From Microcystis aeruginosa NIES-843 (GTDB taxonomy: Bacteria; Cyanobacteriota; Cyanobacteriia; Cyanobacteriales; Microcystaceae): DNA of 32,000 nucleotides. The stretch lies in NCBI RefSeq assembly GCF_000010625.1, contig NC_010296.1, forward strand, positions 5,310,001 to 5,342,000. The letters run 5' to 3'. A program made the translations under genes and the position numbers. This document shows positions 152 through 19,796 of this stretch, piece by piece (position 1 is the stretch's first letter; each line of letters starts with the position of its first letter). Under the pieces are notes generated by a model. The model did not search any database. It saw only the letters and a program-made list of their open reading frames with translations, and had not been told where the DNA came from.

Positions 152-529
152 CTAATGTGTATTAAGCCAGTGGCTTGCTTGTTCTACAAATACTGTGGCG
201 TATTCTAAGGCAATTTTTGTTTGTTCCCTAGTTATTTCAATAACTTGATCATAATCTCCTAATTGTCGTAAATCATAGGTAATTCTTAATGCTTTTGATA
301 GTTCTAATGATAATTCACCTGTTTGAATAAAATGTTGAGAAAATTGCTGTCGTACCCCTCGATGACTGCGAGTATTGATATTTTTAACTATTAACAGAGC
401 TTGGACTGTACAATAAATGGCATAATAGCAACGAGAAATACAAGCACGATAATAATTTTTTTCAAGTAATAGGGTGGCCGCTTCTAATTCTTCATTAGCT
501 TGATTGATATAGGACGAAATTTGGTTCAC
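152..529 (-). CDS. HEPN-domain protein, toxin partner of a HEPN/MNT TA pair
   Basis: 125-aa helical ORF with a candidate Rx4-6H HEPN motif (RQQFSQH). It has a 4-nt overlap with the upstream nucleotidyltransferase gene, the canonical MNT-HEPN operon layout. Confidence 0.8.
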   Translation of the reverse strand: MNQISSYINQANEELEAATLLLEKNYYRACISRCYYAIYCTVQALLIVKNINTRSHRGVRQQFSQHFIQTGELSLELSKALRITYDLRQLGDYDQVIEITREQTKIALEYATVFVEQASHWLNTH

Positions 530-852
530 AGGACAATCCCTTCTCGGCGAATATTGTCCATTAATGGGGTTTGTCGATGAACAAAGTCTTCATCGGCGAT
601 GGGAATCAAAGAAATGAAGGTATTATATTTAAGGTCTAGTTGAGTAGCGATGTCTGCCATCCGAATCACTTCATCTCCAGGGGAAATGGGCCCCTTTAAT
701 ACGACCATAATATCAATATCTGAGTCCTCATTGGCGTTACCCCGCGCTTGTGAACCAAAAAGGATGAGTTTTACTAACCGTTTTCCATAAAACTTTGCTA
801 ATTCTTGGCGAAATTCTTGTAGTATGGGCATTAGGATTTGTAATTGAGCCAT
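526..852 (-). CDS. Minimal nucleotidyltransferase (MNT), antitoxin partner of the HEPN protein
   Basis: LFGSQARGNANEDSDIDIMVV matches the GSxxRG...DxD signature of the pol-beta-fold minimal nucleotidyltransferases. It is translationally coupled to the HEPN gene. Confidence 0.85.
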   Translation of the reverse strand: MAQLQILMPILQEFRQELAKFYGKRLVKLILFGSQARGNANEDSDIDIMVVLKGPISPGDEVIRMADIATQLDLKYNTFISLIPIADEDFVHRQTPLMDNIRREGIVL

Positions 853-1286: not shown

Positions 1287-1781
1287 TTAATGATCATTGT
1301 CTAATTCTGTTTTTAGCCAATTAAGAATCGGAGAACTAATACGAATTCCATAATCAACTAACTGTTGTGATAAATCTAAAATTTCTTGTTTAGATAGATA
1401 ACCTGCATAAAAACCAACCAAGAGAATTCCTAATGTTCCTTTGACGGGTAATTCCATAGCTTTGGCAACTCTTCTTGCTAATTTCTCATCTATAATTACC
1501 CAGTCTGGTTTGATTGAAATTGCCAAGAGAATAACTTCTAATTCTCCTCGATCTAATCCTAGTAATAGCGGTTCAAGAGGAGATGATGATGCAACTTCTT
1601 GAGCTTGAATCCAATTGGCATTTTTGAGTTCTTTTGCCCCCGGTTTATTATCTCCAGCGATGACAATTTCTTGATAAACTGCCCAAGGAATAATCACTTC
1701 ATTAAATAGCTGATTAAGAAGATCTAATTGATTAATCAAAGATAAGGCGATGATCGGTGTAGAATTAACAATTATCTTCAT
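1287..1781 (-). CDS. DUF3368-type PIN-like nucleic-acid-binding protein (putative toxin)
   Basis: 164 aa. The N-terminus IIVNSTPIIALSLINQLDLL and overall length fit the DUF3368 PIN-like family. It overlaps the upstream UPF0175 gene by 17 nt, the usual pairing for this family. Confidence 0.7.
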   Translation of the reverse strand: MKIIVNSTPIIALSLINQLDLLNQLFNEVIIPWAVYQEIVIAGDNKPGAKELKNANWIQAQEVASSSPLEPLLLGLDRGELEVILLAISIKPDWVIIDEKLARRVAKAMELPVKGTLGILLVGFYAGYLSKQEILDLSQQLVDYGIRISSPILNWLKTELDNDH

Positions 1782-2166: not shown

Positions 2167-5100
2167 TCACTTCCACCAGCGGCTGACTTCTCTAATTGCT
2201 TGATGGACTTCTCTGAGGGCGACCACTCCACCAAAATGAAGGATTAAAGGGACTAAGTTGGGAATAGTTTCGAGGAAATGAGGACGAGTGAGAGTACCCA
2301 AAGCCTGAAGGGTATTTTCCCAGAAAGATAAGTCAACATTAGCAGGGGTTAAGGTGGCTGTTAATGCTTTTAATGCCTCTGCACGGTCGGATTCAGACCC
2401 AATCCCTCTGGCAGCTTCTAAAGCTTCCGGTAACGCTTGTGGTAAATAGGGAGCTAACCCGGTCAATACCCTTGCACGGTATTTTTCATCCTTAATGGCT
2501 CTGGCAGCTTCTAAGGCTTCGGGTAACACTTCTGGTAAATAGGGAGCTAAACCTATCAATGCCCAAGCACGGTAGTATTCATTCCCAATCCCTCTGGCAA
2601 TTTCTAAGGCTTCGGGTAACAAACTTTCCGGTAAATGGGGAGCTAACCCGGTCAATACCTCCGCACTCCCAATGGCTCTGGCAACTTCTAAGGCTTTGGG
2701 TAACAAACTTTCCGGTAAATGGGGCGCTAACTCGGTCAATATCTCTACACGGTAGGATGGATAACCGATGTGGCTGGCAACCTCTAAGGCTTCGGGGAAT
2801 ACTTCCGGTAAATAGAGCGCTAACTCGATCAGTACTGGTGCAAGGTATTCTTCACCCCCAATCCCTCTGGCAACTGCTAAGGCTTCCGGTAACACTTCCG
2901 GTAAATGGGGCGCTAACTCGATCAATGCATAAGCACGGTATTTTTCATCCTTAATTGCTCTGACAGCCGCTAAAGCTTCGGGTAACACTTCCGGTAAATA
3001 GGGGGCTAACCCGGTCAATGCCTTTGCACGGGAGTCTTCATTCCCAATCCCTCTGGCAACTTCTAAGGCTTCGGGTAACAAACTTTCCGGTAAATGGGGA
3101 GCTAACCCGGTCAATGCCCAAGCACGGTAGTATTCATTCCCAATCCCTCTGGCAATTTCTAAGGCTTCGGGTAACAAACTTTCCGGTAAATGGGGAGCTA
3201 ACCCGGTCAATACCTCCGCACTCCCAATGGCTCTGGCAACTTCTAAGGCTTTGGGTAACAAACTTTCCGGTAAATGGGGAGCTAACCCGGTCAATGCCTT
3301 TGCACGGTCGGATTCAGACTCAATCGCTCTGGCAGCTTCTAAGGCTTCGGGTAACAAACTGACCGGTAAATAGGGGACTAACTTTCTCAATACCTCTGTA
3401 CGGTAGGATTCAGACCCAATGGATCTGGCAATTTCTAGGGCTTCAGATAAGATTTCCGGTAAATAGGGAGCTAACCTTGTCAATGCCTCTGCACGGTGGT
3501 CTTTATCCCCGATCGCTCTGACAGCTTCTAAGGCTTCGGGTAACAAACTTTCCGGTAAATGGGGAGCTAACCCGGTCAATGCCGAAGCGCGGGCGGATTC
3601 AGACTTAAAGACGCGGGTAATTTCTAAGGCTTCGGGTAACAAACTTTCCGGTAAATGGGGAGCTAACCCGGTCAATGCCGAAGCGCGGGCGGATTCAGAC
3701 TTAAAGACGCGGGTAATTTCTAAGGCTTGGGGTAACAAACTTTCTGGCAAATAGGGAGCTAACCCGGTCAATGCCCCCTCGCTCCCAATCGCTCTGGCAA
3801 TTTCTAAGGCTTGGGGTAACAAACTTTCGGGTAAATAGGGAACTAACTTTCTCAATGCATCTGCATTGGCGTCGTCATCCCTAGAATTCCTAATTGCTCT
3901 GACAGATTCTAAGGCTTCAGGCAACATTTCCGGTAAATAGGGTGCTAACCATCTCAATGCCGAAGCACGGTCGTCTTCATCCTCAATCCCTCTGGCAATT
4001 TCCAAAGCTCTCGGTAACAAACTTTCCGGTAAATGGGGCGCTAATCCTCTCAGTGCCCATGCACGGTCGTCTTCATCCTCAATAGCTCTGGCAAATTCTA
4101 AGGCTTCGGGTAGCACATTTTCAGAGAAATGGGGAGCTAACCTTGTAAATCTCTCTGCAAGTGAAGATTGATAATCATTGGCACTGACAAATTCTAAGGC
4201 TTCGGGTAACACTTCCGGCAAATAGGGAGCTAACCCTCTCAATGCCGAAGCACGGTAGTATTCAGTCCCGATCGCTCTGGCAATTTCTAAGGCTTCGGGT
4301 AACACTTCTGGTAAATGGGGAGCTAACCCGGTCAATACCTCTGCACGGGAGGATTCATTCCCAATCTCTCTGGCAATTTCTAAAGCTTCGGGTAACAAAC
4401 TTTCCTGTAAATGGGGCGCTAACCCGGTCAATACCCTTGCACGGGAGGATTCATTCCCAATCTCTCTGGCAATTTCTAAAGCTTCGGGTAACAAACTTTC
4501 CGGTAAATAGGGAGCTAACCCGGTCAATACCTCTGCACGGGAGGATTCATTCCCAATCTCTCTGGCAATTTCTAAAGCTTCGGGTAACAAACTTTCCTGT
4601 AAATGGGGCGCTAACCCGGTCAATACCCTTGCACGGGAGGATTCATTCCCAATCTCTCTGGCAATTTCTAAAGCTTCGGGTAACAAACTTTCCGGTAAAT
4701 AGGGAGCTAACCCGGTCAATACCTCTGCACGGGAGGATTCATTCCCAATCTCTCTGGCAATTTCTAAAGCTTCGGGTAACAAACTTTCCTGTAAATGGGG
4801 CGCTAACCCGGTCAATACCCTTGCACGGGAGGATTCATTCCCAATCTCTCTGGCAATTTCTAAAGCTTCGGGTAACAAACTTTCCGGTAAATAGGGAGCT
4901 AACCCGGTCAATACCTCTGCACGGGAGGATTCATTCCCAATCCCTCCGGCAATTTCTAAAGCTTCGGGTAACAAACTTTCCGGTAAATGGGGCGCTAACC
5001 CGGTCAATACCCAAGCACGGTAGTATTCATTCCCAATCCCTCCGGCAATTTCTAAAGCTTCGGGTAACAAACTTTCCGGTAAATGGGGCGCTAACCCGGT

Positions 5101-7437
5101 CAATACCCTTGCACGGTAGTTTTCAGACCCAATCCCTCTGGCAATTTCTAAGGCTTCGGGTAATAAAGTAGGGGGAAGATAGGGAGTAATTTTCTCTAGT
5201 CCTTCGGCTTGCTTGCTAGAATCTTGACTTTGCCGTACATAAACCAATCCCTGAGCAGGTGTCCATATTTCATGTTTAATCAGTGCCGCAATTAATTCTG
5301 GTGGAATATTAGTCGCCAAACTATTGAGGGAAGTGGTGATCAAAGCGTAACGCACCTGTAACCCCATAGACTGACCGGAATTGTTGGCAAAATCAGCTTC
5401 CGCCAGTTGCCAAGCTTTAACAACATCCTTGATAAAAATCGCCGTTTTCGCTTCTTTCTCGCATTTGCTATACCAGCCATTACCTCCTTCCGCGGTTTCC
5501 TCCCTCAGTAATTGATGAATCTCTTCAATTTTTCTTGCCTTTTCTAAATGCCAAATCAATTGATTGTAAATATAGCCATCATCCTCTAAACTGTGCCATA
5601 AACCATTTTTAGTCTGTTTTTTGTACCTGCTTAAAAGTTGCCGATTAGCTTCAGAAATTGATAAGCCCAACCCCGGTAATTGATAATCGCTTTCAGAATG
5701 GGGAGAGGCTTGTAAAAGATTACGCGCTAGATCGTGTAAGAGGTCATGGACACGATAACTGACGGTTTGTTCACTAGAAACCCCTGTTAATAATAAGGCT
5801 TTACTGCCTAAATGTCTGAGGGTTTTCTTAGCTTCCGTGAGCCGACAATCCCATAAAGTGGTTGCCATTTTTTCCGTAATTGTCACATCATCGGGTAAGA
5901 CCCCTAACCAGGTAAACTGTTGTAATCTTTGGGGCAATAACCGTTTTAAGCTGAGATTAAAAGAAGCGATTAAACTATAATTTTTACGCTTTTCTTGATT
6001 GGTTGCGTCTTCCGCTTCTAAGCGATCTAAAATTTCTAAATTAGTGATTTCTGCCCGTAAATCTTCAATTAATTCAGTCCAAGAAATATTATCTTCAATT
6101 TGTGCCGCGGTTAACTCTAATGCCAACGGTAAATAACCGACAATTTTGGCGATAATTTTGGCTTGTTTCTGGTCTTCTAAAGTTAATTCACGCTGTAGAT
6201 GACTCGACAATAACGCCAAAGATTGAGTCTCCGTCATGATGTCCAAATCATAACGAATCGCTCCGCTTACTCGGGCTTCTCTTGTCGTTACCAACAATTT
6301 ACAGCCATCCCCCGCCACTCGAAACGGTTCCACATCCTCCGCGTTCCAGAGATCATCCACTACTAATAAAGCCTTTTTATCTGCTAATAAAGTTCTTAAT
6401 TGTAAGGATGCCGCATCAATACCAGTCGGCATAAAATGATAATCTCCTAATGATTGTATCCACTGATGAAGAAAGGATAAAATATCCGGTTGTTGCCCTA
6501 AAGTTGCCCAGAAAATGCCATCAGGAAAAAAAGCTTGAACCTCTTTCTCCTGTGCTAATGCCGCCGCTAAAGTGGATTTACCAATCCCTCCTAATCCATA
6601 AATAGCAATAATAACTAAGGTTCCTATTTCGGTTTTTTCTTTAGATAACAGAAGTTCCTTTAATTTAACAATAACCTCTGGACGTTCGACAAAATACCTC
6701 GGTTTAGGAACAGCTTGATTGCGATAGGAAGAAGATTTTAAAGAAGCGGATATAACGGGTTTAGGTTCAGGATCAATATCATGTTTTTCTAATATCTCAC
6801 ACCATTCGGTATTTTTATAAACCCTGGCCAAAGATTCAGCTTCTAAAGATGCCCGACGATCTATACTTAGCTGTTTAGATTGTACCCCAATCACTAACCC
6901 ATGACAAACAATTGCTGATCCCGATGTTCCTTGCCAAGGTGACTGATCTTCTGCTAATTTTTCTAATTGTTCATCGGTGGGTTGTATGTCTTGACTATCT
7001 TTAATATTTAATAACAACCGGTTATAAGGCGCACGATTAGCTACATCAATAGTTCCCTCAATATGTAACCCTGTGGCGTATTTTATACCATCTTCAGAAT
7101 ACCGTAAAAATAGAGGAAAGCCCAAAAAGTCAAATTTAACTTTTTGGGTGCTACTCGCATCAGGTAACAACCCAAAACCTACAGGATCACAAGTTTCGAT
7201 AGTTTCTGGTAATTCTACTAATGCTATATCGATATTATCTGGTGCTTTCCAAATTACTTGAGCGTCTATATCCTGCTTATCAGAATAGTCTGATGCTGAT
7301 CTAAATCGTACTTGACAGTCGTTACTATTATCAAATAGATGCCGACAAGTTAAGAGTAAACGTCCCCCAATTCGATAGGCAGTGCCATACTTAGGGGCAA
7401 CAATTTCTAAAGCGCGATCGGGTTGGAATTGGGGCAT
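2167..7437 (-). CDS. STAND NTPase: N-terminal trypsin-like serine protease, NB-ARC (Apaf-1/R-protein type) module, ~30 x 32-aa helical solenoid repeats
   Basis: 1756-aa uninterrupted ORF.
- Protease: candidate triad H33 (LLLTCRHLF), D70 (NIDIALVEL), S172 (WQGTSGSAIV).
- NB-ARC: Walker A GLGGIGKST (aa 281-289), Walker B LLVVDDLW (aa 357-364), LLVTTR, GYLPLAL (GLPL-like), VHDLLHDLA (MHD-like), then an Apaf-1-like helical region (YIYNQLIWHLEKA).
- Repeats: aa ~750-1696 are tandem repeats with consensus LPEALEIARxIGxExxRAxxLTGLAPxLPESL. Confidence 0.9.
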   Translation of the reverse strand: MPQFQPDRALEIVAPKYGTAYRIGGRLLLTCRHLFDNSNDCQVRFRSASDYSDKQDIDAQVIWKAPDNIDIALVELPETIETCDPVGFGLLPDASSTQKVKFDFLGFPLFLRYSEDGIKYATGLHIEGTIDVANRAPYNRLLLNIKDSQDIQPTDEQLEKLAEDQSPWQGTSGSAIVCHGLVIGVQSKQLSIDRRASLEAESLARVYKNTEWCEILEKHDIDPEPKPVISASLKSSSYRNQAVPKPRYFVERPEVIVKLKELLLSKEKTEIGTLVIIAIYGLGGIGKSTLAAALAQEKEVQAFFPDGIFWATLGQQPDILSFLHQWIQSLGDYHFMPTGIDAASLQLRTLLADKKALLVVDDLWNAEDVEPFRVAGDGCKLLVTTREARVSGAIRYDLDIMTETQSLALLSSHLQRELTLEDQKQAKIIAKIVGYLPLALELTAAQIEDNISWTELIEDLRAEITNLEILDRLEAEDATNQEKRKNYSLIASFNLSLKRLLPQRLQQFTWLGVLPDDVTITEKMATTLWDCRLTEAKKTLRHLGSKALLLTGVSSEQTVSYRVHDLLHDLARNLLQASPHSESDYQLPGLGLSISEANRQLLSRYKKQTKNGLWHSLEDDGYIYNQLIWHLEKARKIEEIHQLLREETAEGGNGWYSKCEKEAKTAIFIKDVVKAWQLAEADFANNSGQSMGLQVRYALITTSLNSLATNIPPELIAALIKHEIWTPAQGLVYVRQSQDSSKQAEGLEKITPYLPPTLLPEALEIARGIGSENYRARVLTGLAPHLPESLLPEALEIAGGIGNEYYRAWVLTGLAPHLPESLLPEALEIAGGIGNESSRAEVLTGLAPYLPESLLPEALEIAREIGNESSRARVLTGLAPHLQESLLPEALEIAREIGNESSRAEVLTGLAPYLPESLLPEALEIAREIGNESSRARVLTGLAPHLQESLLPEALEIAREIGNESSRAEVLTGLAPYLPESLLPEALEIAREIGNESSRARVLTGLAPHLQESLLPEALEIAREIGNESSRAEVLTGLAPHLPEVLPEALEIARAIGTEYYRASALRGLAPYLPEVLPEALEFVSANDYQSSLAERFTRLAPHFSENVLPEALEFARAIEDEDDRAWALRGLAPHLPESLLPRALEIARGIEDEDDRASALRWLAPYLPEMLPEALESVRAIRNSRDDDANADALRKLVPYLPESLLPQALEIARAIGSEGALTGLAPYLPESLLPQALEITRVFKSESARASALTGLAPHLPESLLPEALEITRVFKSESARASALTGLAPHLPESLLPEALEAVRAIGDKDHRAEALTRLAPYLPEILSEALEIARSIGSESYRTEVLRKLVPYLPVSLLPEALEAARAIESESDRAKALTGLAPHLPESLLPKALEVARAIGSAEVLTGLAPHLPESLLPEALEIARGIGNEYYRAWALTGLAPHLPESLLPEALEVARGIGNEDSRAKALTGLAPYLPEVLPEALAAVRAIKDEKYRAYALIELAPHLPEVLPEALAVARGIGGEEYLAPVLIELALYLPEVFPEALEVASHIGYPSYRVEILTELAPHLPESLLPKALEVARAIGSAEVLTGLAPHLPESLLPEALEIARGIGNEYYRAWALIGLAPYLPEVLPEALEAARAIKDEKYRARVLTGLAPYLPQALPEALEAARGIGSESDRAEALKALTATLTPANVDLSFWENTLQALGTLTRPHFLETIPNLVPLILHFGGVVALREVHQAIREVSRWWK
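2350..5195 (-). repeat. Intragenic tandem repeat array (96-nt / 32-codon unit, ~30 copies) encoding the C-terminal solenoid of the STAND protein
   Basis: - Three perfect 192-nt copies at 4321-4512, 4513-4704 and 4705-4896.
- A near-exact 2 x 96 nt duplication at 3539-3730.
- A 166-nt exact duplicate: 2559-2724 equals 3114-3279.
- All remaining units are recognisably related. Confidence 0.95.
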
Positions 7438-7555: not shown

Positions 7556-7858
7556 CTAATCGGGAATATCATCACTTCCTGTCTTGATAGGTCCTCCATC
7601 TTTCCCAATGGGTTTAAGGGGAATTTTAATTCTATGGGTTATCGTATCTTTATTGGTGACACCCCCACCCATTTCTACTACCCAAAATTTCAGCCCACCT
7701 TTGCCTTCTTTCGACTGCTCAACCACAAATTGAACCTCTAATTCAATTTCACCCACTTCAAAGCGAATCTGCTCACCCTCAGAGGCTAAAATAGATTTAC
7801 TGAGTTCAACCCGCAATGCTTCTAAGGTTTCTCGAAGTCCAACTTTATTGATGTCCAT
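7556..7858 (-). CDS. trypco2-like (trypsin co-occurring domain 2) small protein
   Basis: 100 aa. LRETLEALRVEL...IRFEVGEIELEVQFVV...GGLKFWVVEMGGG...THRIKIPLKP matches my recollection of the trypco2 family pattern (RFElgpvELEf...FWVv..gG...tHrvkl.L.P). It lies immediately upstream of and co-oriented with the protease-STAND gene. Confidence 0.7.
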   Translation of the reverse strand: MDINKVGLRETLEALRVELSKSILASEGEQIRFEVGEIELEVQFVVEQSKEGKGGLKFWVVEMGGGVTNKDTITHRIKIPLKPIGKDGGPIKTGSDDIPD

Positions 7859-9811: not shown

Positions 9812-11296
9812 TTAGCGGGTTAAGGCCGCGCCTCTTTCGTACAAAGTGCGGGCATAATCGGTCCAAGTACCTTGGCCCCAATAACGGAAACAACTGGTTT
9901 GCACGAGCAAATTATAAAGCAGTGCCTCCAGATAATCGGGCCGTCGGGTGAAGCTAGGATCCGCCTGTACTAAAAGATCATATTTCTCGTGGAATTTAGC
10001 GCTTAATTGGTTCATCGGTTCGAGAACATTTTCGTAACCGCGCACCCAACTGAGATCATTGGTCCAAGATGCCCCATCCATGGTAAAACGGTGGTCGGAC
10101 TGTTTTAACTCAGCGATCGCCTGTTCCACTGCTTCTGGGGTAGCGGCATCGGGATTAACTCGCTGCCAGATTTTATGCTGGTGTACGGCTTGAATTGGGG
10201 GATAATCTTGGGGATTAACGCCAGCGGCCTCGATTAACTCCAGATATTCCGTGCCGTTAAATCCTGCCACAGTGGAACCCCCCTGCATTTCCCGCCAAGG
10301 ATTGGGAAAATCGCGAGGAAATTCATTCATCATCACGCCACCATTTTCACCGTCGGCAATCTGGGAACCTAGGGAAGGAACCCAAACGCCGCCGATTTGC
10401 TGTTTACCGCGGCATTTGGCCTCGTGGTAGGGTTGCATTTGGGCGACTAATTTGGTGTCGGAACCCTGGGTTTTAATCAAAGCAGTAATCGCAATCACTT
10501 CCCCGCGAGAATTACGGGCCACCAGGCGATTAGGAATATATTTTTGTTCCTGACTCAATCCCGAACCGTCGAGATTTTCCACCGAGTGTTCCTGTACCAA
10601 TAACCAACGATAGCCGCATTCTTTCAGGGCTTTAATATACTCGTAGAGGGTATCGGGATGGTTAGGAAGGTGCATTTCCGGGGGAGAGAACCCTTTGACT
10701 CGTTTCAGGGCATCGGGGCCAAAAATCGAGGCAAAATAGGTTTGCCATGCTTGCATCTGTAATTTTAGATCGGGAATCGGTGTGGAAGGAGCCACCGCAT
10801 GACTCCACATCGTCCCCAACCATTCCACATAGGGTTGATATTGACTGTTACAGGTGATTAATTTGAGTTTATCGAGGATATCCTGCCGTCCCATCTGTAC
10901 CAAACCCCAGAGGAGATTGCCGGAATAATCGAGCATAATCCGGGGATTACAGCCTTCCGCCACCAATTCCGGGATAAAATCGCCCATGCGACTGTAACAC
11001 CAGGCAAAAACGCTGGCATTATGGTTATCACCATCCCCCTGATTCTCGAACATATGCTGGAGATTGCAGATTAATTCACCATTAACACCCGCGGGGATGG
11101 TGGGTTGGTGCATATGCAAGGCACAGGCAAAACCAGCCTTGATATGGTCTAATTGGAGATTTGTTGTCGGTAAAAAGATCGGATCATCGTGATTAACAAT
11201 CGCTGCGATTTCCTGTTCCCAACCGCAAATAGTCGGTAGTCCGGGGCGGATTTCCGTGATAGCGTTCGATTTCGATGATACGGGTGTAGCGATCAT
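9812..11296 (-). CDS. Glycoside hydrolase family 57-like protein
   Basis: 494 aa. ALHMHQP (GH57 region I HxHQP), GYRWLLVQEHS (WxxE nucleophile-region-like) and IADGENGG (DGE-type acid/base region). Confidence 0.65.
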   Translation of the reverse strand: MIATPVSSKSNAITEIRPGLPTICGWEQEIAAIVNHDDPIFLPTTNLQLDHIKAGFACALHMHQPTIPAGVNGELICNLQHMFENQGDGDNHNASVFAWCYSRMGDFIPELVAEGCNPRIMLDYSGNLLWGLVQMGRQDILDKLKLITCNSQYQPYVEWLGTMWSHAVAPSTPIPDLKLQMQAWQTYFASIFGPDALKRVKGFSPPEMHLPNHPDTLYEYIKALKECGYRWLLVQEHSVENLDGSGLSQEQKYIPNRLVARNSRGEVIAITALIKTQGSDTKLVAQMQPYHEAKCRGKQQIGGVWVPSLGSQIADGENGGVMMNEFPRDFPNPWREMQGGSTVAGFNGTEYLELIEAAGVNPQDYPPIQAVHQHKIWQRVNPDAATPEAVEQAIAELKQSDHRFTMDGASWTNDLSWVRGYENVLEPMNQLSAKFHEKYDLLVQADPSFTRRPDYLEALLYNLLVQTSCFRYWGQGTWTDYARTLYERGAALTR

Positions 11297-12907: not shown

Positions 12908-13726
12908 GTGAAGACCGATACAATTTTTTATCAACTCTTGCAAACCTTTCCGGGGTTAATTTTTGAATTACTGGGAGAATCAACCCAGAAAGCTGAAAAT
13001 TATCAATTTTCCTCCCGAGAAATCAAAGAATTAGCGCGTCGTTTTGACGGTATTTTTTTACCGACCACAGCAGCACCGGAACTAATGATTTACTTTGTTG
13101 AAGTGCAATTTCAGGATAAAAGTGATTTTTATTGGCGATTTTTAACAGAAATTGTCATCTATCTCAATCAGTATAAACCCGTTCAGGATTGGATAGCTGT
13201 AGCTTTATTTGCCTCCAGGGATCTGGATAATAACTTTCCCTATCAACTGCGGGGATTTGAGATAACGGGACAGATCAGACCTATTTATTTAGATGAATTA
13301 ATCGATAGTCCGGCTCCGTCTCTGGGTTTAGGAATTATTCAGTTAATTGTCGCTACACCCCAATTAGCACAGCAACGAGGAAAACCACTTTTAGAAAAAG
13401 CGATCGCTGAAATTGATGATCTAGTTTTCCAGCAAAAAGTTGTAGAATTAATTGAAAGAACCTTAGCCTATAAATTTACTAATCTTAGTCGTGCGGAGTT
13501 AGAAGCTATGTTCGGATTAGATGATCTCAGACAGACTCGACTTTATCAAGAAGCTAAACAAGAAGGTCGTGAAGAAGGTCGTGAAGAAGGTCGTGAAGAA
13601 GCTAAAACTGAAGCGATCGCTGGTTTACTAGCTTTAGGTTTAAGTATAGAACAGATTGCCACTGCTTTGCAATTAGAACTTACCAAAGTACAAGAGACAG
13701 CGGCCAAATTATCCCCCCCAAATTAG
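12908..13726 (+). CDS. Rpn/YhgA-like PD-(D/E)XK recombination-promoting nuclease family protein (DUF2887-type)
   Basis: 272 aa with a GTG start. MKTDTIFYQLLQTFPGLIFELLG, FDGIFLP...YFVEVQFQ (a D...ExQ nuclease-like core), and a C-terminal GLSIEQIATALQL HTH-like tail. Paralogue of 21009-21806. Confidence 0.75.
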   Translation: MKTDTIFYQLLQTFPGLIFELLGESTQKAENYQFSSREIKELARRFDGIFLPTTAAPELMIYFVEVQFQDKSDFYWRFLTEIVIYLNQYKPVQDWIAVALFASRDLDNNFPYQLRGFEITGQIRPIYLDELIDSPAPSLGLGIIQLIVATPQLAQQRGKPLLEKAIAEIDDLVFQQKVVELIERTLAYKFTNLSRAELEAMFGLDDLRQTRLYQEAKQEGREEGREEGREEAKTEAIAGLLALGLSIEQIATALQLELTKVQETAAKLSPPN

Positions 13727-13761: not shown

Positions 13762-15108
13762 CTATTCATTCATATTACGATAGGTAGCCACTGCCGAGGG
13801 AGAAATGCGATTGAGATAACGGAAAATCCAATATTTTAAGACTGTATCCAAGATAACGGGAAAAGTGGCGATAAAGAGAAAATTAAACTGGCGATTTTCC
13901 GGTAAACCGAAATGACGACTTAATCCTTCTAGGATCACTTCCCAACCGTGGGGAGAGTGGAAACCGACAAATATATCGGTAAAGAGAATAATTAAAAAAG
14001 CTTTAGCTGAATCGCTAAGATTATAGAGAATGCCATCCAGAAAAGACTTGACAATCTCGATTTCCCGACGACTAAAAGCGACAACAAAACCAAAGGCAAT
14101 CAGGGAACAAATATCGGCGAAAATATTAGCGATCGCATTTAAACCTCGTTGGCGAAATTCTTCACTTAGTACCGCGGCTTTTTTGGTAATTTCTCCCTCG
14201 ATTTCTTCGTTAGATAATTTGGGTGCTAAACCAATCATACCTCGAAAATGTAAAGCTTCCTCAAATCTTCTCAATTCCGAAAAAGCTTCTTCTTCTAAAT
14301 CCTGATTGATAAAAATAAACTGTTCCTGTTGTTGGAAATATTTATTAACCAAGGGGGTAATCAGGAAAGTTTTGGTTAATTGCTGGGTCAACAAAGGAAC
14401 AATAATTAACAGTAAAATAAACTTGAGGGAAATGGCTGTTTTATAACGAGAATTGCGAAATTTCTTTAAAACTGCCTCCTCCGATTCCTCCGCTTGGGGA
14501 TCAATTTCCTGTTTAATGCGATTAAAAGTATTGACAAAAGAACGGGGTAAAACCCCCGGTTTTTCCGTAGCTTTTTGGGATTTATTACTTTTGATTATTT
14601 CCTCATCTTCAATACTACCCGCTGCTAAAAAAGAGCGATTTCTAGAAGTCTTATTTTTGGCTGTTTCCTGCTCAAAATTTCTGTTCTGGATACTTTTGGG
14701 AACATCTTGAATATCTTCTTGCCAATAATTATCTTGATATTTTCCGATAATACTATCGATAAACTGAAGTTTTTTCAGACAAACATCTGTGGTGACAGTA
14801 ATCACCCCATTATTAATTGTCGGTTGATTAGGTCCGAAAGTATTAACGATTGATCGACTAGCTTTAAACTCCGTCAATCTGACTTTAATTTTTTGCAGAT
14901 AACCTTTAACTTCTGCGATAAAATAGGAATTAGTGCTGCTGCCATAATTCGAGAATTCATTCGCCACTTTTCGCCCTTGAAAATGCTTGTCTTCTATCTC
15001 CTTAATCTTCAAAGCTGCATGATAAGCCTCATCTAAAGAACGTTCAGGAGTTTGTAATAACCATTGATTAACACCTTGCAAAATCCGATTAAGATTCATA
15101 GGAAACAA
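13762..15108 (-). CDS. pxcA: Proton extrusion protein PxcA (CemA family)
   Basis: 448 aa. The C-terminal HSPHGWEVILEGLSRHFGLPENRQFNFLFIATFPVILDTVLKYWIFRYLNRISPSAVATYRNMNE is the conserved CemA/PxcA domain. The long N-terminal extension is typical of the cyanobacterial form. Confidence 0.9.
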   Translation of the reverse strand: MFPMNLNRILQGVNQWLLQTPERSLDEAYHAALKIKEIEDKHFQGRKVANEFSNYGSSTNSYFIAEVKGYLQKIKVRLTEFKASRSIVNTFGPNQPTINNGVITVTTDVCLKKLQFIDSIIGKYQDNYWQEDIQDVPKSIQNRNFEQETAKNKTSRNRSFLAAGSIEDEEIIKSNKSQKATEKPGVLPRSFVNTFNRIKQEIDPQAEESEEAVLKKFRNSRYKTAISLKFILLLIIVPLLTQQLTKTFLITPLVNKYFQQQEQFIFINQDLEEEAFSELRRFEEALHFRGMIGLAPKLSNEEIEGEITKKAAVLSEEFRQRGLNAIANIFADICSLIAFGFVVAFSRREIEIVKSFLDGILYNLSDSAKAFLIILFTDIFVGFHSPHGWEVILEGLSRHFGLPENRQFNFLFIATFPVILDTVLKYWIFRYLNRISPSAVATYRNMNE

Positions 15109-15177
15109 TTACTTCCACAAGGGAGAAAAGCTAGAGTACCGATCAGTCATCTTAACAAATACAATCCAGAAAAAACG

Positions 15178-17298
15178 ATGTCAATCATACCAATTTGGAT
15201 CGAAGGTGGGACTCGATCGGGAAAAACCACCGCTTTAGTCGGGGAATTTCGGCGCTGGGTTGTTTCTCAACTTCAGTCCCAGGATTCATTGTATCTCGAT
15301 CGACCGAAATCATCGCCCCTTCCCCGCTCGATCTTAGTTTTCGCTGCCAACGATGATAATAAACGGGAATTAGCCGATCAATTAGCCCTTGCTGTTAGGG
15401 GTAGCTATCCGATTCTCTGCAAAACCCCTTTAGGTTTTCTCACCGATGAAGTCATCCTGTTTTGGCCGTTAATTTTCGAGTCTTTAGGGCTAAAAGCGCA
15501 ATTTCCCCGCCGATTACGCCCAGAAACGGAACAGGAACTCGCCACCCGTCTCTGGCAACCAGCGATCGCTGAATTCTTCCAGCCTACTAGCATAAATGAA
15601 TATCGTTTCGTCCGTCAAGTTCTCGATTTGTTACAATTAGCCGGCGCTAGTGGTGTTCCCGCAGAAAAGATACCCGAAAGATTAGCCGACGGATTATCAG
15701 AAACAGATTTAAAACGAGTTTTAGCGATTAATGAGCAGGAAACACCAGAAAAAGTGGGAGAATTAATCATTCAATGGCGTGATTGGTCTCTAGAACGTGG
15801 TTTATTAAGTTATGGTATCATCTACGAACTCTATTGGCGCTATTTATTTCCTGATAGTCGTTATCAGCAGCAACTATTAAAACGCTTCCGGGGAGTTTTT
15901 GCGGACGATGTGGACGATTATCCGGCTATTGCCAAGGATTTACTCAGTTTTTTCCTCGATCATGATTGTTTTAGCGTTTTTACCTACAATCCCCAGGGAA
16001 AAATTCGCTTAGGATTAACTGCCGATCCCGATTATCTGCAAAAATTAGCGGCACGCTGTCAAATTATGTCATTATCTACCACCGACGGGTTAGCTGCTCA
16101 GTTTAGCGAGACGGTTCTCTCCTTAATCAGCGACGGTAACTATCTTGGCAATCTTCCCGATCAATTCATCTCCCTGCAAACCACCTCTCGCGCCGAATTG
16201 TTACGGAAGACAGCCACCGCTATTATTCAAGCAGTCAAGCAAGGAGCAGTAAAACCCGAAGAAATCGCCGTTATTGCCCCCGGTTTAGACGAAATCGCCC
16301 GTTATAGCCTGATGGAAATTTTAACCGGTGCCGGGATACCCGTTCAACCCCTCAACGAACAACGACCCCTGATCAGTTGTCCTCTGATTCGGGCATTATT
16401 GACCCTTCTCGCCCTTGTTTACGCAAATTTGGGGCGTTTAGCCCCCCAAGAGGCCATAGCGGAAATGCTGGTGATTTTTAGCCGTTATCGCTGGGATGAA
16501 GAAGAGAATTTAATTCCCGATATCGATCCAATCCGCGCCGGATTAATTGCCGATCATTGTTATCAAGTGCATCCGGAAAATCCTCGTTTATTAGCGATCG
16601 AAACTTTTCCCCGTTGGGATCGCTTAGGACAAAAAGCTTGTACTGCCTACGAAAGAATTTGTCACTGGATCGAAGGGATGAAAAAACGGCAGCAGCAAGC
16701 GAAACTTTTCCCGATTTTTGTCTTAAATCAAGCGATCGAAGAATTATTAAACGATGGGGAAAATTTGCCCTTCGATCACTTGGCAGCTTTGCGAGAATTA
16801 ATGGAAACTGCCCAACATTTTTGGGAGATCGATCGGCGTTTGCGTGAGAGTGAACCCTCTTTTCAAAGTCCCAGCGAAACTATTAGTCAGTTTATCCAAC
16901 TTTTGCGCCGTGGTACAATTACCGCTAATCCCTATCCCGTGCGACAATTTATTAAATCTTCCTCAGCAGTTACCCTAGGCAATATCTTTCAATATCGCTC
17001 TTTTCGTTCTAGTCATCGTTGGCATTTTTGGCTAGATTGTTCCTCCCCACTCTGGGAACAAGGAGGTGCTGCTACTCTTTTTGCTGCGCCAATTTTTTGG
17101 CGAGAAAGTCCCTATCAACGCTGGACAACAGAGGCAGAATTAGAGGAAAATCAGGCACGTTTACAGAGAGTTTTAAGGGATTTATTAGCAAGGGTAAGCG
17201 AAAAAGTTATCCTCTGTCACAGTGATTTAGGAGTATCGGGAACCGATCAAACCGGACAACTTTTATCCTTAGTACAAGCGGCAAAAGAATATGATTAA
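15178..17298 (+). CDS. Conserved P-loop protein, UvrD/AddB-like helicase-nuclease superfamily (predicted)
   Basis: Walker A GGTRSGKTT close to the N-terminus and a Walker-B-like VFADDVDDYP. I prefer the ATG at 15178 (MSIIPIWIEGG) because the track start at 15064 overlaps the divergent pxcA 5' end. The function is inferred from motifs only. Confidence 0.5.
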   Translation: MSIIPIWIEGGTRSGKTTALVGEFRRWVVSQLQSQDSLYLDRPKSSPLPRSILVFAANDDNKRELADQLALAVRGSYPILCKTPLGFLTDEVILFWPLIFESLGLKAQFPRRLRPETEQELATRLWQPAIAEFFQPTSINEYRFVRQVLDLLQLAGASGVPAEKIPERLADGLSETDLKRVLAINEQETPEKVGELIIQWRDWSLERGLLSYGIIYELYWRYLFPDSRYQQQLLKRFRGVFADDVDDYPAIAKDLLSFFLDHDCFSVFTYNPQGKIRLGLTADPDYLQKLAARCQIMSLSTTDGLAAQFSETVLSLISDGNYLGNLPDQFISLQTTSRAELLRKTATAIIQAVKQGAVKPEEIAVIAPGLDEIARYSLMEILTGAGIPVQPLNEQRPLISCPLIRALLTLLALVYANLGRLAPQEAIAEMLVIFSRYRWDEEENLIPDIDPIRAGLIADHCYQVHPENPRLLAIETFPRWDRLGQKACTAYERICHWIEGMKKRQQQAKLFPIFVLNQAIEELLNDGENLPFDHLAALRELMETAQHFWEIDRRLRESEPSFQSPSETISQFIQLLRRGTITANPYPVRQFIKSSSAVTLGNIFQYRSFRSSHRWHFWLDCSSPLWEQGGAATLFAAPIFWRESPYQRWTTEAELEENQARLQRVLRDLLARVSEKVILCHSDLGVSGTDQTGQLLSLVQAAKEYD

Positions 17299-18027: not shown

Positions 18028-18840
18028 TTAAACCAGCGATTTTAACCAACTGTACCAAGCATCTAAACCTTCTCCTGTGGTAGCGGAAACTTGAAAAACT
18101 TTCAGATTGGGATTAACTTGATAGGCATAATCTAAACAGCGATCGAGGTTAAAATTAACGTAGGGTAGTAGGTCTATTTTTGTCAAGATCATGACTTGAG
18201 AAGCGTGGAACATATAGGGATATTTAATCGGTTTATCTTCCCCTTCGGTGACGGAAAGAATGACGACTTTGGCATTTTCTCCCAAATCAAATAAAGCAGG
18301 ACAAACTAGATTACCGACATTTTCGATCATGACTAAAGAATTCATCGGTGGATCGAGTTCGATTAATCCTCTCTCTACCATTGATGCTTCTAAATGACAA
18401 CCTGTTCCGGTGTTAATTTGGATAACCTGACAACCGGTTTCACTAATTTTTTGGGCATCATTAGCTGTTGCTTGATCTCCCTCAATGACACTGATAGGAA
18501 TAGCGGTTTTTAAATCGGCAATTGTGCGAGTTAACAGGGTAGTTTTTCCCGAACCGGGGGAAGAAACCAGATTAAGGGCAACAGTTTTTCTCCCCTTCAA
18601 CCAACCGCGATTTTGTGCCGCTAACAGATTATTTTTTGCCAGCAGATTTTGCTCAACTTGGAGAATGCTACCATGAATTTGAGCGTGAATTTCCGCGGGA
18701 TGATGGGGATGCTCATGCTCGTGATCGTGATGGCTATGACTAATAACAGTACCATCGGCTAAAATATGTTCATGGGTTCCCGTTTGCGGATTAGTTAGCG
18801 TCACTTCCGAGTTATCAGAACAACCACAGGTTACACACAT
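18028..18840 (-). CDS. hypB: Hydrogenase nickel incorporation GTPase HypB
   Basis: 270 aa. N-terminal MCVTCGCS metal site, His-rich tract HSHHDHEHEHPHHP, G1 SSPGSGKTT and ENVGNLVCP. Confidence 0.95.
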   Translation of the reverse strand: MCVTCGCSDNSEVTLTNPQTGTHEHILADGTVISHSHHDHEHEHPHHPAEIHAQIHGSILQVEQNLLAKNNLLAAQNRGWLKGRKTVALNLVSSPGSGKTTLLTRTIADLKTAIPISVIEGDQATANDAQKISETGCQVIQINTGTGCHLEASMVERGLIELDPPMNSLVMIENVGNLVCPALFDLGENAKVVILSVTEGEDKPIKYPYMFHASQVMILTKIDLLPYVNFNLDRCLDYAYQVNPNLKVFQVSATTGEGLDAWYSWLKSLV

Positions 18841-19175
18841 AAGGATTCTGTCTCCAACGATTTGAGATTTAATTCTTGACCCTGTAAAATGACTATATTG
18901 CGACTACCACATCGATCGCAGATTCCGTAGGGATATTCTAGTTCTAGCTCATTTCCGCAATCTTGGCACTGTCCTAAACCAGAAATTTCCAGAATCTCTA
19001 ACATTGCCCCCTCTACATTAGTACCTTGACAACAGGTATCAAAACAAAAAGCGATCGATTCTGGCATAATTGCCGTTAGTTTACCAATCTCTAACACCAC
19101 GCGCCTAACTTTCATTCCTCGCGAGTGTTCTAAAGCAAGTTCGATAATATTTTGGGTGATTCCTAGTTCGTGCAT
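18831..19175 (-). CDS. hypA: Hydrogenase maturation nickel metallochaperone HypA
   Basis: 114 aa. MHELGITQNIIE N-terminus (MHE Ni site) and CQDCG...CDRCGS zinc motif. It overlaps hypB by 10 nt. Confidence 0.95.
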   Translation of the reverse strand: MHELGITQNIIELALEHSRGMKVRRVVLEIGKLTAIMPESIAFCFDTCCQGTNVEGAMLEILEISGLGQCQDCGNELELEYPYGICDRCGSRNIVILQGQELNLKSLETESLCV

Positions 19176-19178
19176 TTT

Positions 19179-19446
19179 CAGTTATCAGTTATCAGTTATC
19201 AGTTATCAGTTATCAGTTATCAGTTATCAGTTATCAGTTATCAGTTATCAGTTATCAGTTATCAGTTATCAGTTATCAGTTATCAGTTATCAGTTATCAG
19301 TTATCAGTTATCAGTTATCAGTTATCAGTTATCAGTTATCAGTTATCAGTTATCAGTTATCAGTTATCAGTTATCAGTTATCAGTTATCAGTTATCAGTT
19401 ATCAGTTATCAGTTATCAGTTATCAGTTATCAGTTATCAGTTATCA
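19179..19446. repeat. Perfect heptanucleotide tandem array (CAGTTAT) x 38
   Basis: Counted directly: the first unit starts at 19179 and the 38th ends at 19444, followed by a partial 'ca'. The array begins 4 nt upstream of the hypA start codon. It is STRR-like. Confidence 0.97.
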
Positions 19447-19572
19447 AGGAAATTTCAACTAAAACCCCAAAACCCCAACTATTTGAGGGTTCAAAACAGC
19501 AAAAATAAGGATTAAATTGCCTAAAATCTGTAAATAGACCATTTAATTGATTATTATTCATTTTTAATTCTC

Positions 19573-19796
<224 letters not shown>

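Follow-up and report, generated by a model that had tools for sequence, protein, structure and literature searches.

The minus strand of the window (the whole stretch of 32,000 nucleotides of Microcystis DNA that was analysed) encodes a STAND/NLR-like protein whose C-terminal sensor array contains perfectly repeated blocks, and the sequence supports a very recent tandem amplification of a two-unit higher-order repeat (2 × 32 aa, 192 nt) as their origin. The array follows a trypsin-like protease and an NB-ARC NTPase, the gene is paired with a Pepco gene, the number of units differs between alleles, and variation within the unit clusters at a few positions. We consider it probable that the higher-order repeat was recently amplified in register, that the array undergoes turnover, and that sensing by the solenoid would act through the protease to open a Pepco pore. 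Coordinates are window positions throughout, and the analysed gene and its array lie entirely on the minus strand.

The original prediction had drawn attention to three 192-nt segments (4321–4512, 4513–4704 and 4705–4896), and direct comparison showed them to be the same base for base. Each position from 4318 to 4750 is identical to the position 192 nt further on, which gives perfect 192-nt periodicity over 4318–4942 (625 nt, 3.25 copies). A fourth copy, said to diverge after about 47 nt, first differs at 4943, 47 nt past 4896. Each segment encodes two 32-aa units, the quoted peptides being those of the minus-strand translation, and the 96-nt halves of the 192-nt unit are separated by five base differences in four codons, three of them non-synonymous. 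DNA identity is 100% among units 4, 6 and 8 and among units 5 and 7, and is 93–100% across units 3–9 (223 aa), which exceeds the threshold of >85% over at least 100 aa used by Dyrka et al. (2014). At the protein level, the exact self-match spans 144 aa at an offset of 64. Because the other array units average 80% DNA identity, the 433-nt exact self-match is not attributable to chance.

Two further duplications were described correctly. The near-exact 2 × 96-nt duplication at 3539–3730 has halves (3539–3634 and 3635–3730) that differ once, with C/G at 3633, and the 166-nt block at 2559–2724 recurs at 3114–3279, 555 nt away, the exact block being in fact 169 nt long. Tandem Repeats Finder, which had been proposed as a check, returned one array (2667–5167, period 96, 26.4 copies, score 2474), with a period-288 row spanning 2372–5167. 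The observation of exact repeats is confirmed in every detail.

Table 1. Features of the STAND gene, its repeat array and the neighbouring gene (window positions)
Feature	Position	Strand	Basis or remark
Whole STAND/NLR-like gene, 1756 aa	2167..7437	-	ORF list, translation, Pfam
Trypsin-like serine protease domain, aa 18-190	6868..7386	-	Pfam Trypsin, Trypsin_2
NB-ARC nucleotide-binding domain, aa 258-461	6055..6666	-	Pfam NB-ARC
Putative winged-helix and APAF-1-like helical domain, aa 509-644	5506..5913	-	Pfam APAF1_C
Array of 30 tandem units, aa 760-1701	2335..5160	-	Unit parse, Tandem Repeats Finder, AlphaFold2, Foldseek
Perfectly 192-periodic tract, two-unit higher-order repeat x3.25, units 3-9	4318..4942	-	Exact-match run
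Units 16 and 17 (2 x 96-nt duplication; single mismatch, Q/E at unit position 2)	3541..3732	-	Single copy in L008
Exact 169-nt block, upstream copy (unit 21 plus some of unit 22)	3111..3279	-	Equals 2556-2724, offset 555
Exact 169-nt block, downstream copy (unit 27 plus some of unit 28)	2556..2724	-	Exact match
Non-repeat C-terminal cap, aa 1702-1756, ...LILHFGGVVALREVHQAIREVSRWWK	2170..2334	-	Translation, homologue C-termini
Trypco2/Pepco gene, 100 aa, putative protease-activated pore effector	7556..7858	-	Pfam PF19631

In gene order, the product comprises a trypsin-like protease, an NB-ARC NTPase, 30 helical units and a C-terminal cap. The protease region scored 26.8 bits against Pfam Trypsin (cut-off 20.6) and 27.3 bits against Trypsin_2, and inspection of the translation, without structural superposition, located the putative triad motifs TCRH(33)L, D(70)IALV and GTS(172)GS, all three of which are kept in 54 of 56 homologues with a complete N terminus. 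Judged by this score and these motifs, the protease appears to be catalytically competent. The nucleotide-binding domain matched PF00931 (NB-ARC; E=2.5e-21, 76.5 bits against a cut-off of 23.5) and carries a Walker A motif (GLGGIGKST) and a Walker B motif (LLVVDDLW), a combination that places it in the NB-ARC (AP-ATPase) clade of STAND NTPases. The APAF1_C match that follows is barely above its cut-off (23.2 against 22.8 bits) and that to APAF-1-like_WHD is below it (17.4 against 27); alignments of AfsR and APAF-1 to the gene product reach aa 576. The cap is conserved in the wider sensor family, with the consensus ...LGGxxAxxExxxAIxDVxRWWP.

An exact-protein look-up of the 1756-aa product returned no record, and a megablast of the N-terminal part of the gene against plasmids gave no match. 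PADLOC found no Avs or NLR model at E≤0.01, only weak matches in the protease region (HamA1 and RT-Protease_XI), and the protein lacks the match to Avs models that would mark it as Avs4, the portal-sensing antiviral STAND group. Plus-strand ORFs within the array (2559–2954, 3018–3362 and 4242–5171) are best regarded as shadow ORFs, left open on the antisense strand of a repeat with few stop codons.

The repeats had been assigned to the sensor domain of a STAND protein, in agreement with an array that is modelled as an alpha-solenoid and has the Trypsin, NB-ARC and APAF1 helical domains N-terminal to it. Its 30 units (the count as assembled) are 28–35 aa long, mostly 31–32, and together with the solenoid model they correspond to the C-terminal superstructure-forming repeat sensor of STAND proteins. 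The AlphaFold2 model of the array has a mean pLDDT of 81, with blocks of about 90 or above over the perfect tract, and DSSP assigned two helices of about 13 and 14 residues to each unit; as in HEAT proteins, the paired helices of the predicted model are antiparallel and stacked as a solenoid. The best Foldseek matches were HEAT solenoids (mTOR, RanBP5, MMS19, CAND1 and SF3B1; E 1e-9 to 1e-6), with low TM-scores of 0.2–0.3. When the repeat region was searched by itself against Pfam at E≤10, no HEAT model and no credible family emerged, only sub-threshold matches to TPR_12 and mTOR_dom; the array thus lacks the HEAT-family Pfam match by which HEAT repeat proteins are recognized in sequence. Each unit is predicted to contribute one helix-turn-helix to a HEAT-like alpha-solenoid that is presumed to sense the ligand. 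The repeat makes up about 4,900 clusters at 50% identity.

Across 90 distinct units, entropy peaks at unit positions 12, 14, 15 and 18. Variable columns have pN > pS and framework columns pS far above pN, figures that, like the overall pN/pS of about 0.86, are descriptive, being drawn from paralogous units under gene conversion. Where units are nearly identical, their differences are mostly non-synonymous. The original prediction spoke of a rapidly diversifying sensor; the clustering of unit differences at a few positions with pN > pS is consistent with this description, which falls short of formal proof.

Repeat number was expected to be polymorphic between strains, and comparison of orthologues bears this out: there are 30 units in the window, 15 in the metagenomic allele L008, 2 in L009 and 10 in NIES-102, and the count, far from invariant, ranges from 2 to 15 in 23 end-to-end homologues. 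Unit number and order are polymorphic between alleles and the units appear to evolve in concert, with the caveat that L008 and L009 are metagenome contigs that MEGAHIT assembled from short reads, where strain chimeras are possible. L008 is nearly identical to the window allele, from which it differs by nine SNPs, all within a 5' patch (nt 87–222), with no substitution anywhere else in what the two alleles share, be it the repeats, the cap or the 280 nt compared downstream. Relative to the window, it has lost 672, 84, 96 and 555 nt in register, and the exact homology at the respective breakpoints is 14–49, 30, 107 and 169 nt. Exactly 3 × 192 nt of the 192-periodic tract are missing, as are the 555 nt that separate the 169-nt blocks. 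All 15 units of L008 match units of the window, 14 of them with no mismatch; the other is a hybrid that joins the head of unit 2/3 to the tail of unit 9. L009 combines an N terminus that is 99.5% identical with only its two units and a diverged 3' end. The syntenic orthologue L010, in the complete genome of Microcystis viridis NIES-102 (AP019314.1), has units that are nearly identical to each other and of a sequence type differing from that of the window, with a 258-nt exact self-repeat. Mean unit identity is 93% within the NIES-102 gene versus 82% between NIES-102 and the window, and such an excess of within-gene over between-gene identity is the pattern expected of concerted evolution.

We considered whether L008 might be the window allele simply collapsed at k=141, and rejected this as the sole explanation: the window allele lacks 252 of the 141-mers of L008, and the L008 product has none of the 'AREIGNESS' units that a minimal traversal of the repeat cycle would retain. 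The junction k-mers specific to L008 fall at nt 2274–2539 and 2828–3093 of its gene. All k-mers of L008 of length ≤31 are present in the window allele, so a mis-join from a low-k assembly round could have contributed to it. Among its gaps, only that of 555 nt, with its 169 nt of shared homology, could be explained as simple collapse.

The gene that lies directly upstream, also on the minus strand, encodes a product that matches PF19631 (Trypco2; E=5e-24, 84.8 bits, cut-off 24.2), and the same pair of genes is found in L009 and in NIES-102. A Trypco2-domain gene beside a trypsin-like peptidase gene is the arrangement of a Pepco/Trypco2-protease module. The Microcystis protein has an amphipathic-looking N-terminal helix and a tail rich in Pro and charge (...HRIKIPLKPIGKDGGPIKTGSDDIPD). 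Pepco (Trypco1/2) adjoining a trypsin-fused Avs4 STAND becomes toxic when its C-terminal tail is cleaved (bioRxiv 10.1101/2025.11.14.688446). Compared by its description with the published SsPepco case, the tail here (...HRIKI/PLKPIGKDGGPIKTGSDDIPD) would fit as a charged, Pro-rich tail with an Ile before a putative cleavage site. By homology, the pair would constitute a protease-activated pore module driven by the STAND sensor.

We infer a mechanism in which recombination shapes the sensor, and ligand binding leads through proteolytic activation to cell death. The array would turn over by homologous recombination or replication slippage with its units in register, gaining and losing whole units and making neighbours alike; unequal crossing-over, slippage and gene conversion are indistinguishable from the present data. 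Such in-register turnover would explain why alleles on nearly the same background differ in unit number and order. Those point differences that last would lie chiefly along a single face of the second helix and in the loop between the two helices, the presumed ligand surface. Homology suggests that a foreign protein, probably from a cyanophage, would be bound by the solenoid, whereupon the NB-ARC module would oligomerise and the N-terminal protease would cut the C-terminal tail off the adjacent Trypco2/Pepco protein. The latter would then form a membrane-permeabilising beta-barrel, resulting in abortive infection.

We entertained the possibility that the assembler created the three perfect copies or counted them wrongly, the true count being fewer or more. 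An accompanying warning about assembly of this region was justified, since 31 of the 80 closest homologues have a proper start and end inside the array. Moreover, the 433-nt exact self-match exceeds short-read length, unit counts are lower in the closest alleles, L008 and L009, the exact protein is without a record, and the amplified unit type has no match elsewhere, in that two patterns specific to the higher-order repeat (62 nt and 38 nt) revealed no second copy in JGI metagenome contigs. However, the 32-kb window is unbroken through this array and two long heptamer arrays, and the reading frame stays open across 1756 aa. In the finished genome of NIES-102, the orthologous locus likewise contains a perfect repeat within the gene, and 28 of 149 diverse family members have internal stretches of 32 aa or more that recur exactly. 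The L008 junction 141-mers that are missing from the window allele also indicate separate sequences, neither collapsed from the other, and we judge an artefact to be quite unlikely.

Were the repeats real but neutral, they would have arisen incidentally as slippage occurred in a solenoid that tolerates it, with unit number and sequence having no role in recognition or adaptation. This reading, which we consider unlikely, draws on the tolerance of solenoids for unit insertion and deletion and on an overall pN/pS near neutrality, but it must contend with variation that is strongly position-specific, hypervariable at positions 12, 14, 15 and 18 against a framework in which pS predominates. Reading frame and unit register are, in addition, preserved in all 23 complete homologues, and sensors of this type occur joined to many different effectors and NOD modules, as would be the case for a functional recognition module. 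Far less probable is that an old identity has been kept by gene conversion or by purifying selection on DNA or protein, with no recent duplication. Perfect identity is also a product of gene conversion, and rare ancient repeats are held similar by purifying selection (Hu et al. 2017, PMC5587647), but synonymous sites are the same too (0 differences in 433 nt), and the absence of exactly three copies from the sister allele L008 fits copy gain or loss. Such an old identity differs only in degree from recent amplification, because conversion and unequal exchange are outcomes of one recombination process. A DGR-type mechanism, considered by analogy, was set aside, the ORFs scanned having revealed neither a template/variable-repeat pair nor a reverse transcriptase.

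Between the window allele and L008, four or five unit-level events stand against zero substitutions in about 3.6 kb. On a tentative and less likely reading, in-register recombination between near-identical units would alter the length of the sensor and the order of its units much more quickly than point mutation does. This would be diversification at the population level, comparable to that of fungal HET/NWD loci and a different route from the DGR-driven hypermutation of other cyanobacterial STAND sensors. Microcystis is a toxic bloom former whose strain dynamics are thought to be shaped by phage pressure. On the same tentative reading, the array would be a contingency-type innate-immunity locus, a bloom would carry a standing repertoire of NLR-like receptor variants against cyanophages, and prokaryotic STAND proteins would have in the 32-aa sensor repeat a major recognition module that still lacks a name. 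The locus provides a PCR-sizeable marker of how receptors diversify in a bacterial NLR-like system; for the effector arm, the Pepco pore and its proteolytic activation, there is now experimental support from a homologous system. For annotation, the 32-aa repeat is a widespread sensor module for which current domain libraries, Pfam included, hold no model. Because genes of this family are systematically fragmented or shortened when assembled from short reads, surveys of defence repertoires will under-count and mis-size them.

The Streptomyces subrutilus Avs4 system resembles this locus in having a Pepco/Trypco gene directly upstream of a STAND gene with an N-terminal trypsin-like protease, a helical-repeat sensor, and, putatively, a Pro- and charge-rich Pepco tail preceded by Ile. 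Unlike in that system, the NOD here is NB-ARC/APAF-1-like, with no PADLOC Avs match, and the sensor consists of regularly arrayed 32-aa repeats, near-perfect copies among them; Avs4 senses phage portal, whereas the ligand of the Microcystis protein is only presumed and the host is a cyanobacterium. The core of NB-ARC and putative winged-helix and helical domains is shared with AfsR and APAF-1, the best solved relatives (E=2e-22 and E=3e-18, respectively). APAF-1 adds a CARD and WD40 propellers to this core and AfsR a SARP DNA-binding domain and TPRs, where the Microcystis protein has a protease and a HEAT-like array.

In the middle repeat region of Helicobacter pylori CagY, in-frame recombination between direct DNA repeats frequently changes repeat number and function. 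In-frame recombination between direct repeats would likewise alter repeat number in the Microcystis array. CagY is, however, a type IV secretion component and not a STAND sensor, and we rejected homology to it: the phmmer match in a PDB sequence search was weak (E=0.004), with no single stretch significant, and is best explained by shared helical periodicity.

Highly repetitive WD40 and TPR regions are known from prokaryotic NLR-like proteins of cyanobacteria and actinobacteria (Hu et al. 2017, PMC5587647), and high internal repeat conservation has been reported for bacterial NLRs as well (Dyrka et al. 2020, bioRxiv 10.1101/2020.01.06.895854). In common with the Microcystis gene, these proteins occur in multicellular or colonial bacteria and show 80–100% internal identity and a low dS between units that is read as recent duplication. 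Our locus differs in its repeat class and adds allele-level evidence of unit gain or loss on one haplotype. In fungi, high internal repeat conservation and repeat reshuffling are documented for the HET-E/D/R and NWD genes of Podospora anserina (Dyrka et al. 2014, PMC4986451). The likeness extends to a STAND protein with a C-terminal repeat sensor, units >85% identical over >100 aa, allele-variable unit number and order, concerted evolution and about four variable positions per unit. Where the fungal NLRs have WD40, ANK or TPR repeats and HET or HeLo effectors, the bacterial gene has a HEAT-like two-helix unit with no Pfam model, and a protease with a Pepco pore. High internal repeat conservation in NLR-like sensors is thus already documented, and the Microcystis locus is a further case; like fungal NLRs, bacterial solenoid sensors may retune their specificity by repeat reshuffling, a question that this locus makes testable.

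Base-by-base comparison bore out the original prediction of three perfect higher-order repeats in the sensor region of the STAND gene, as 4321-4512, 4513-4704 and 4705-4896 are identical at every position. Perfect 192-nt periodicity extends over 625 nt (4318-4942, 3.25 copies) and the next copy first mismatches at 4943, matching the proposed divergence of a fourth copy after ~47 nt. The two other duplications that had been proposed were also recovered: the near-exact 2 x 96-nt pair (3539-3634 versus 3635-3730) carries a single mismatch at 3633, and the exact 166-nt block (2559-2724 and 3114-3279) lies within an exact match of 169 nt (2556-2724 and 3111-3279). Tandem Repeats Finder, the suggested check, returned a single array at 2667-5167 (period 96, 26.4 copies, 81% matches, score 2474). 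Because units elsewhere in the array average only 80% DNA identity, the 433-nt exact self-match is not due to chance.

Each 192-nt repeat encodes, as predicted, two 32-aa units, A (…RAEVLTGLAPYLPESLL) and B (…RARVLTGLAPHLQESLL). The halves differ by 5 bases in 4 codons, 3 of which are non-synonymous (E/R at position 18, Y/H at position 26 and P/Q at position 28). Within the tract, which units 3 and 9 bound, one sequence is shared by units 4, 6 and 8 and another by units 5 and 7; GG -> RE at positions 8 and 9 is the sole difference of unit 3 versus unit 5. Antisense ORFs on the plus strand across the array (2559-2954, 131 aa; 3018-3362, 114 aa; 4242-5171, 309 aa) are most likely shadow ORFs arising from a periodic sequence poor in stops; gene callers could mistake them for genes.

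Among solved structures, AfsR and APAF-1 are the nearest relatives of the N-terminal 759 aa. The translation contains Walker A (GLGGIGKST) and Walker B (LLVVDDLW) motifs, together with protease motifs (TCRHL, DIALV and GTSGS) that are kept in 54 of 56 N-complete homologues. By the sequence criteria tested, the protein is classed as an NB-ARC STAND; Avs4 membership was rejected, as PADLOC models did not assign it there.

Features of the STAND locus and of other repeats in the window
Feature	Position	Strand	Details
STAND gene ORF, 1756 aa	2167-7437	-	ORF list and translation; encodes the repeats
Trypsin-like peptidase	aa 18-190		Pfam
NB-ARC	aa 258-461		Pfam, E=2.5e-21
APAF-1 helical domain	aa 598-644		Pfam
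Repeat array	aa 760-1701		30 tandem units of 28-35 aa (mostly 31-32)
Trypco2 domain protein gene	7556-7858	-	E=5e-24; directly upstream of STAND gene, same strand
HEPN	152-529	-	adjoins MNT nucleotidyltransferase
MNT nucleotidyltransferase	526-852	-	adjoins HEPN
DUF2887 paralogue	12908-13726	+	E=5e-69; AAGAAGGTCGTG x3.5 at 13560-13601
hypA	18831-19175	-	
Heptanucleotide array	19178-19446		TCAGTTA x38.4, 100% perfect
Heptanucleotide array	19570-19795		CTCCTGA x32.3, 92%
AIR-synthase-related hypE-like gene	19833-20951	-	
DUF2887 paralogue	21009-21806	-	E=2e-84; TTCCAGTTTACC x4.2 at 21111-21161

The units (consensus PEALEIARGIGxExxRAxALTGLAPHLPESLL), which are followed by a non-repeat C-terminal cap, matched no Pfam model even at E<=10, and HEAT family membership by sequence was rejected accordingly. 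A confident single-sequence AlphaFold2 model of aa 690-1756 (mean pLDDT 81, with the perfect tract in 10-residue blocks of about 90 or more) is helix-turn-helix throughout, with two helices per unit. Its top Foldseek matches in the PDB are the HEAT solenoids mTOR, RanBP5, MMS19, CAND1 and SF3B1, at low global TM-scores that are expected because the superhelical pitch is uncertain. Given the helical model, these matches and the lack of a Pfam model, the predicted sensor is a HEAT-like alpha-solenoid of a repeat type without a library model.

Among the units of the STAND gene, pN exceeds pS at alignment columns 6, 11, 12, 17, 18, 21, 22, 25 and 34 (positions 6, 11, 12, 14, 15, 18, 19, 22 and 31 in 32-aa unit numbering), and pS greatly exceeds pN at framework columns A3, L4, A17, L20, L23, A24, L27 and P28; overall pN/pS in the array is ~0.86. 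Position 9 is also highly variable, with six residue types and pS slightly above pN (0.55 versus 0.44). Across 90 distinct 32-aa units from Microcystis homologues, entropy is maximal at positions 12, 14, 15 and 18, followed by 6, 9, 11 and 22. The unit model places a loop at positions 10-12 and the second helix at 13-26. Since the variable residues are spaced 14/15, 18, 21/22, this periodicity suggests that they share one helical face, opposite a conserved core of R16/A17, L20, L23/A24 and L27. A stripe of ligand-binding residues running along the solenoid would fit this pattern, which is descriptive and does not formally test for positive selection.

Comparison of orthologues agreed with the predicted polymorphism in unit number: the window allele has 30 units as assembled, the longest observed, whereas the metagenome contig L008 has 15, the orthologue in the complete genome of Microcystis viridis NIES-102 (AP019314.1) has 10 and a second metagenome contig, L009, has 2. 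In NIES-102 the units are of another sequence type (…EIARGIG[DN]EDYRA[RS]ALTGLAPHLPEVL) and contain a 258-nt exact self-repeat. They are near-identical among themselves (mean 93%) versus 82% identical to window units, which is a signature of concerted evolution, in a finished genome. The anticipated assembly problem is also visible: of the 80 closest homologues, 31 begin normally and end inside the array, several being 'partial' per source, and 23 are complete end to end (2-15 units, 878-1322 aa).

L008 (ENA MEGAHIT k141 contig, sample ERZ27268121) encodes 1287 aa, and every unit matches window units, 14 of the 15 with 0 mismatches and the remaining one as a hybrid of a unit 2/3 head and the unit 9 tail. 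In-register gaps of 672, 84, 96 and 555 nt separate it from the window allele, with exact breakpoint homologies of 14-49, 30, 107 and 169 nt, respectively; the largest could correspond to removal of unit 2, together with that of exactly three 192-nt copies via exchange between units 3 and 9. The simplest account of such dynamics would be homologous recombination or slippage between units in register, with which the breakpoint homologies (14-169 nt) are compatible. Collapse of the window allele in a k=141 de Bruijn graph was rejected as the sole origin of L008, because 252 141-mers of L008 are absent from that allele and L008 has no 'AREIGNESS' unit. A mis-join carried over from a low-k assembly round is possible, as every L008 k-mer of length <=31 also occurs in the window allele. 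Outside the repeats L008 differs from the window by 9 SNPs, all at gene nt 87-222; the other ~2 kb, the cap and the 280 nt of downstream sequence compared carry none. L009 (sample ERZ27268116) shares the upstream synteny and a 99.5% identical N-terminus; its cap is 82% identical and its downstream DNA unrelated. This contig is a recombinant, or else a chimera, whose breakpoint falls within the array. SNPs that separate the window allele from its two closest alleles, L008 and L009 (9 and 12, 7 positions in common), all fall in gene nt 22-222 (window about 7216-7416), with none in the following ~2 kb. Such clustering points to recombination over a short patch that encodes the N-terminus of the protease.

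A phmmer search with aa 1047-1756 against 1.84 billion cluster representatives matched 4929 proteins at E<=1e-3 and 1255 at E<=1e-30, mostly of 1000-2300 aa. In a sample of 30, the repeat and cap are fused to NB-ARC (12), AAA_16 (10), NPHP3_N (8) or NACHT (4) NTPase modules, and trypsin (5), caspase (3) and Mrr nuclease (1) are among the effectors at the N-terminus. Exact internal repeats of >=32 aa occur in 28 of 149 representatives and of >=64 aa in 4, none equalling the 144 aa of the STAND gene; perfect internal duplications are therefore recurrent in this sensor family, with the STAND gene an extreme case. Short-read assemblies probably under-represent them.

Homologues come from Microcystis, with N-terminal parts 70-99% identical. 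The locus is syntenic with NIES-102, where the order is CNNM, 494-aa ORF, ScpA, PNP oxidase, Trypco2, STAND gene and toxin-antitoxin genes. The position of the 494-aa ORF (9812-11296, -) is conserved in L009 and NIES-102; at the thresholds applied, Pfam recognised neither it nor the 744-aa ORF at 15064-17298 (+). Directly downstream, the STAND gene is followed by toxin-antitoxin-like pairs (152-852 and 1287-2055, -). The 164-aa ORF at 1287-1781 (-) is the counterpart, by length and position, of a DUF3368-annotated gene downstream of the NIES-102 STAND gene, which there has UPF0175 upstream. An additional Phd/ParE pair separates the NIES-102 STAND gene from these genes, so the downstream flank is variable.

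Elsewhere, two long heptanucleotide arrays between hypA and the hypE-like gene resemble the short tandemly repeated sequences of cyanobacteria. They too are liable to change length and to be mis-assembled, and they probably give rise to the plus-strand ORFs 19156-19515 and 19170-19508 as artefacts. Two DUF2887 paralogues each carry a short perfect 12-nt tandem repeat.

In conflict systems of multicellular prokaryotes, trypsin-like peptidases are partnered by Trypco1/2, as defined by Kaur et al. 2020 (PMC7159879). Encoded upstream of a trypsin-fused Avs4 STAND, the same protein, named Pepco, forms beta-barrel oligomers; on sensor activation the protease cuts it after a conserved Ile, and removal of a ~2-kDa C-terminal tail renders it toxic, probably via a membrane pore (2025 preprint, 10.1101/2025.11.14.688446). 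The C-terminus of the predicted Pepco at this locus (…HRIKIPLKPIGKDGGPIKTGSDDIPD) is compatible with this description. By analogy, a likely activation sequence would be ligand binding by the solenoid, NB-ARC oligomerisation, Pepco cleavage, and membrane damage with abortive infection.

Taken together, our results support the interpretation of recent amplification in a STAND sensor. Fungal NLRs are described as having strongly conserved internal repeats that vary in number and order, evolve in concert and have a few positions each under selection (PMC4986451). Bacterial NLR-like proteins, among them cyanobacterial ones, have been noted to behave in this way in their WD40 and TPR repeats (10.1101/2020.01.06.895854; PMC5587647). 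That a bacterial NLR sensor diversifies at a high, contingency-like rate in bloom populations is a tentative and rather unlikely extension. The window repeats are a clean, extreme case of a known phenomenon, with an effector mechanism experimentally supported in a homologous system. Relative to known NLRs, what is specific to the STAND gene is its HEAT-like 32-aa unit without a library model, its predicted Pepco-protease effector and the allele-level evidence for gain and loss of units on one haplotype.
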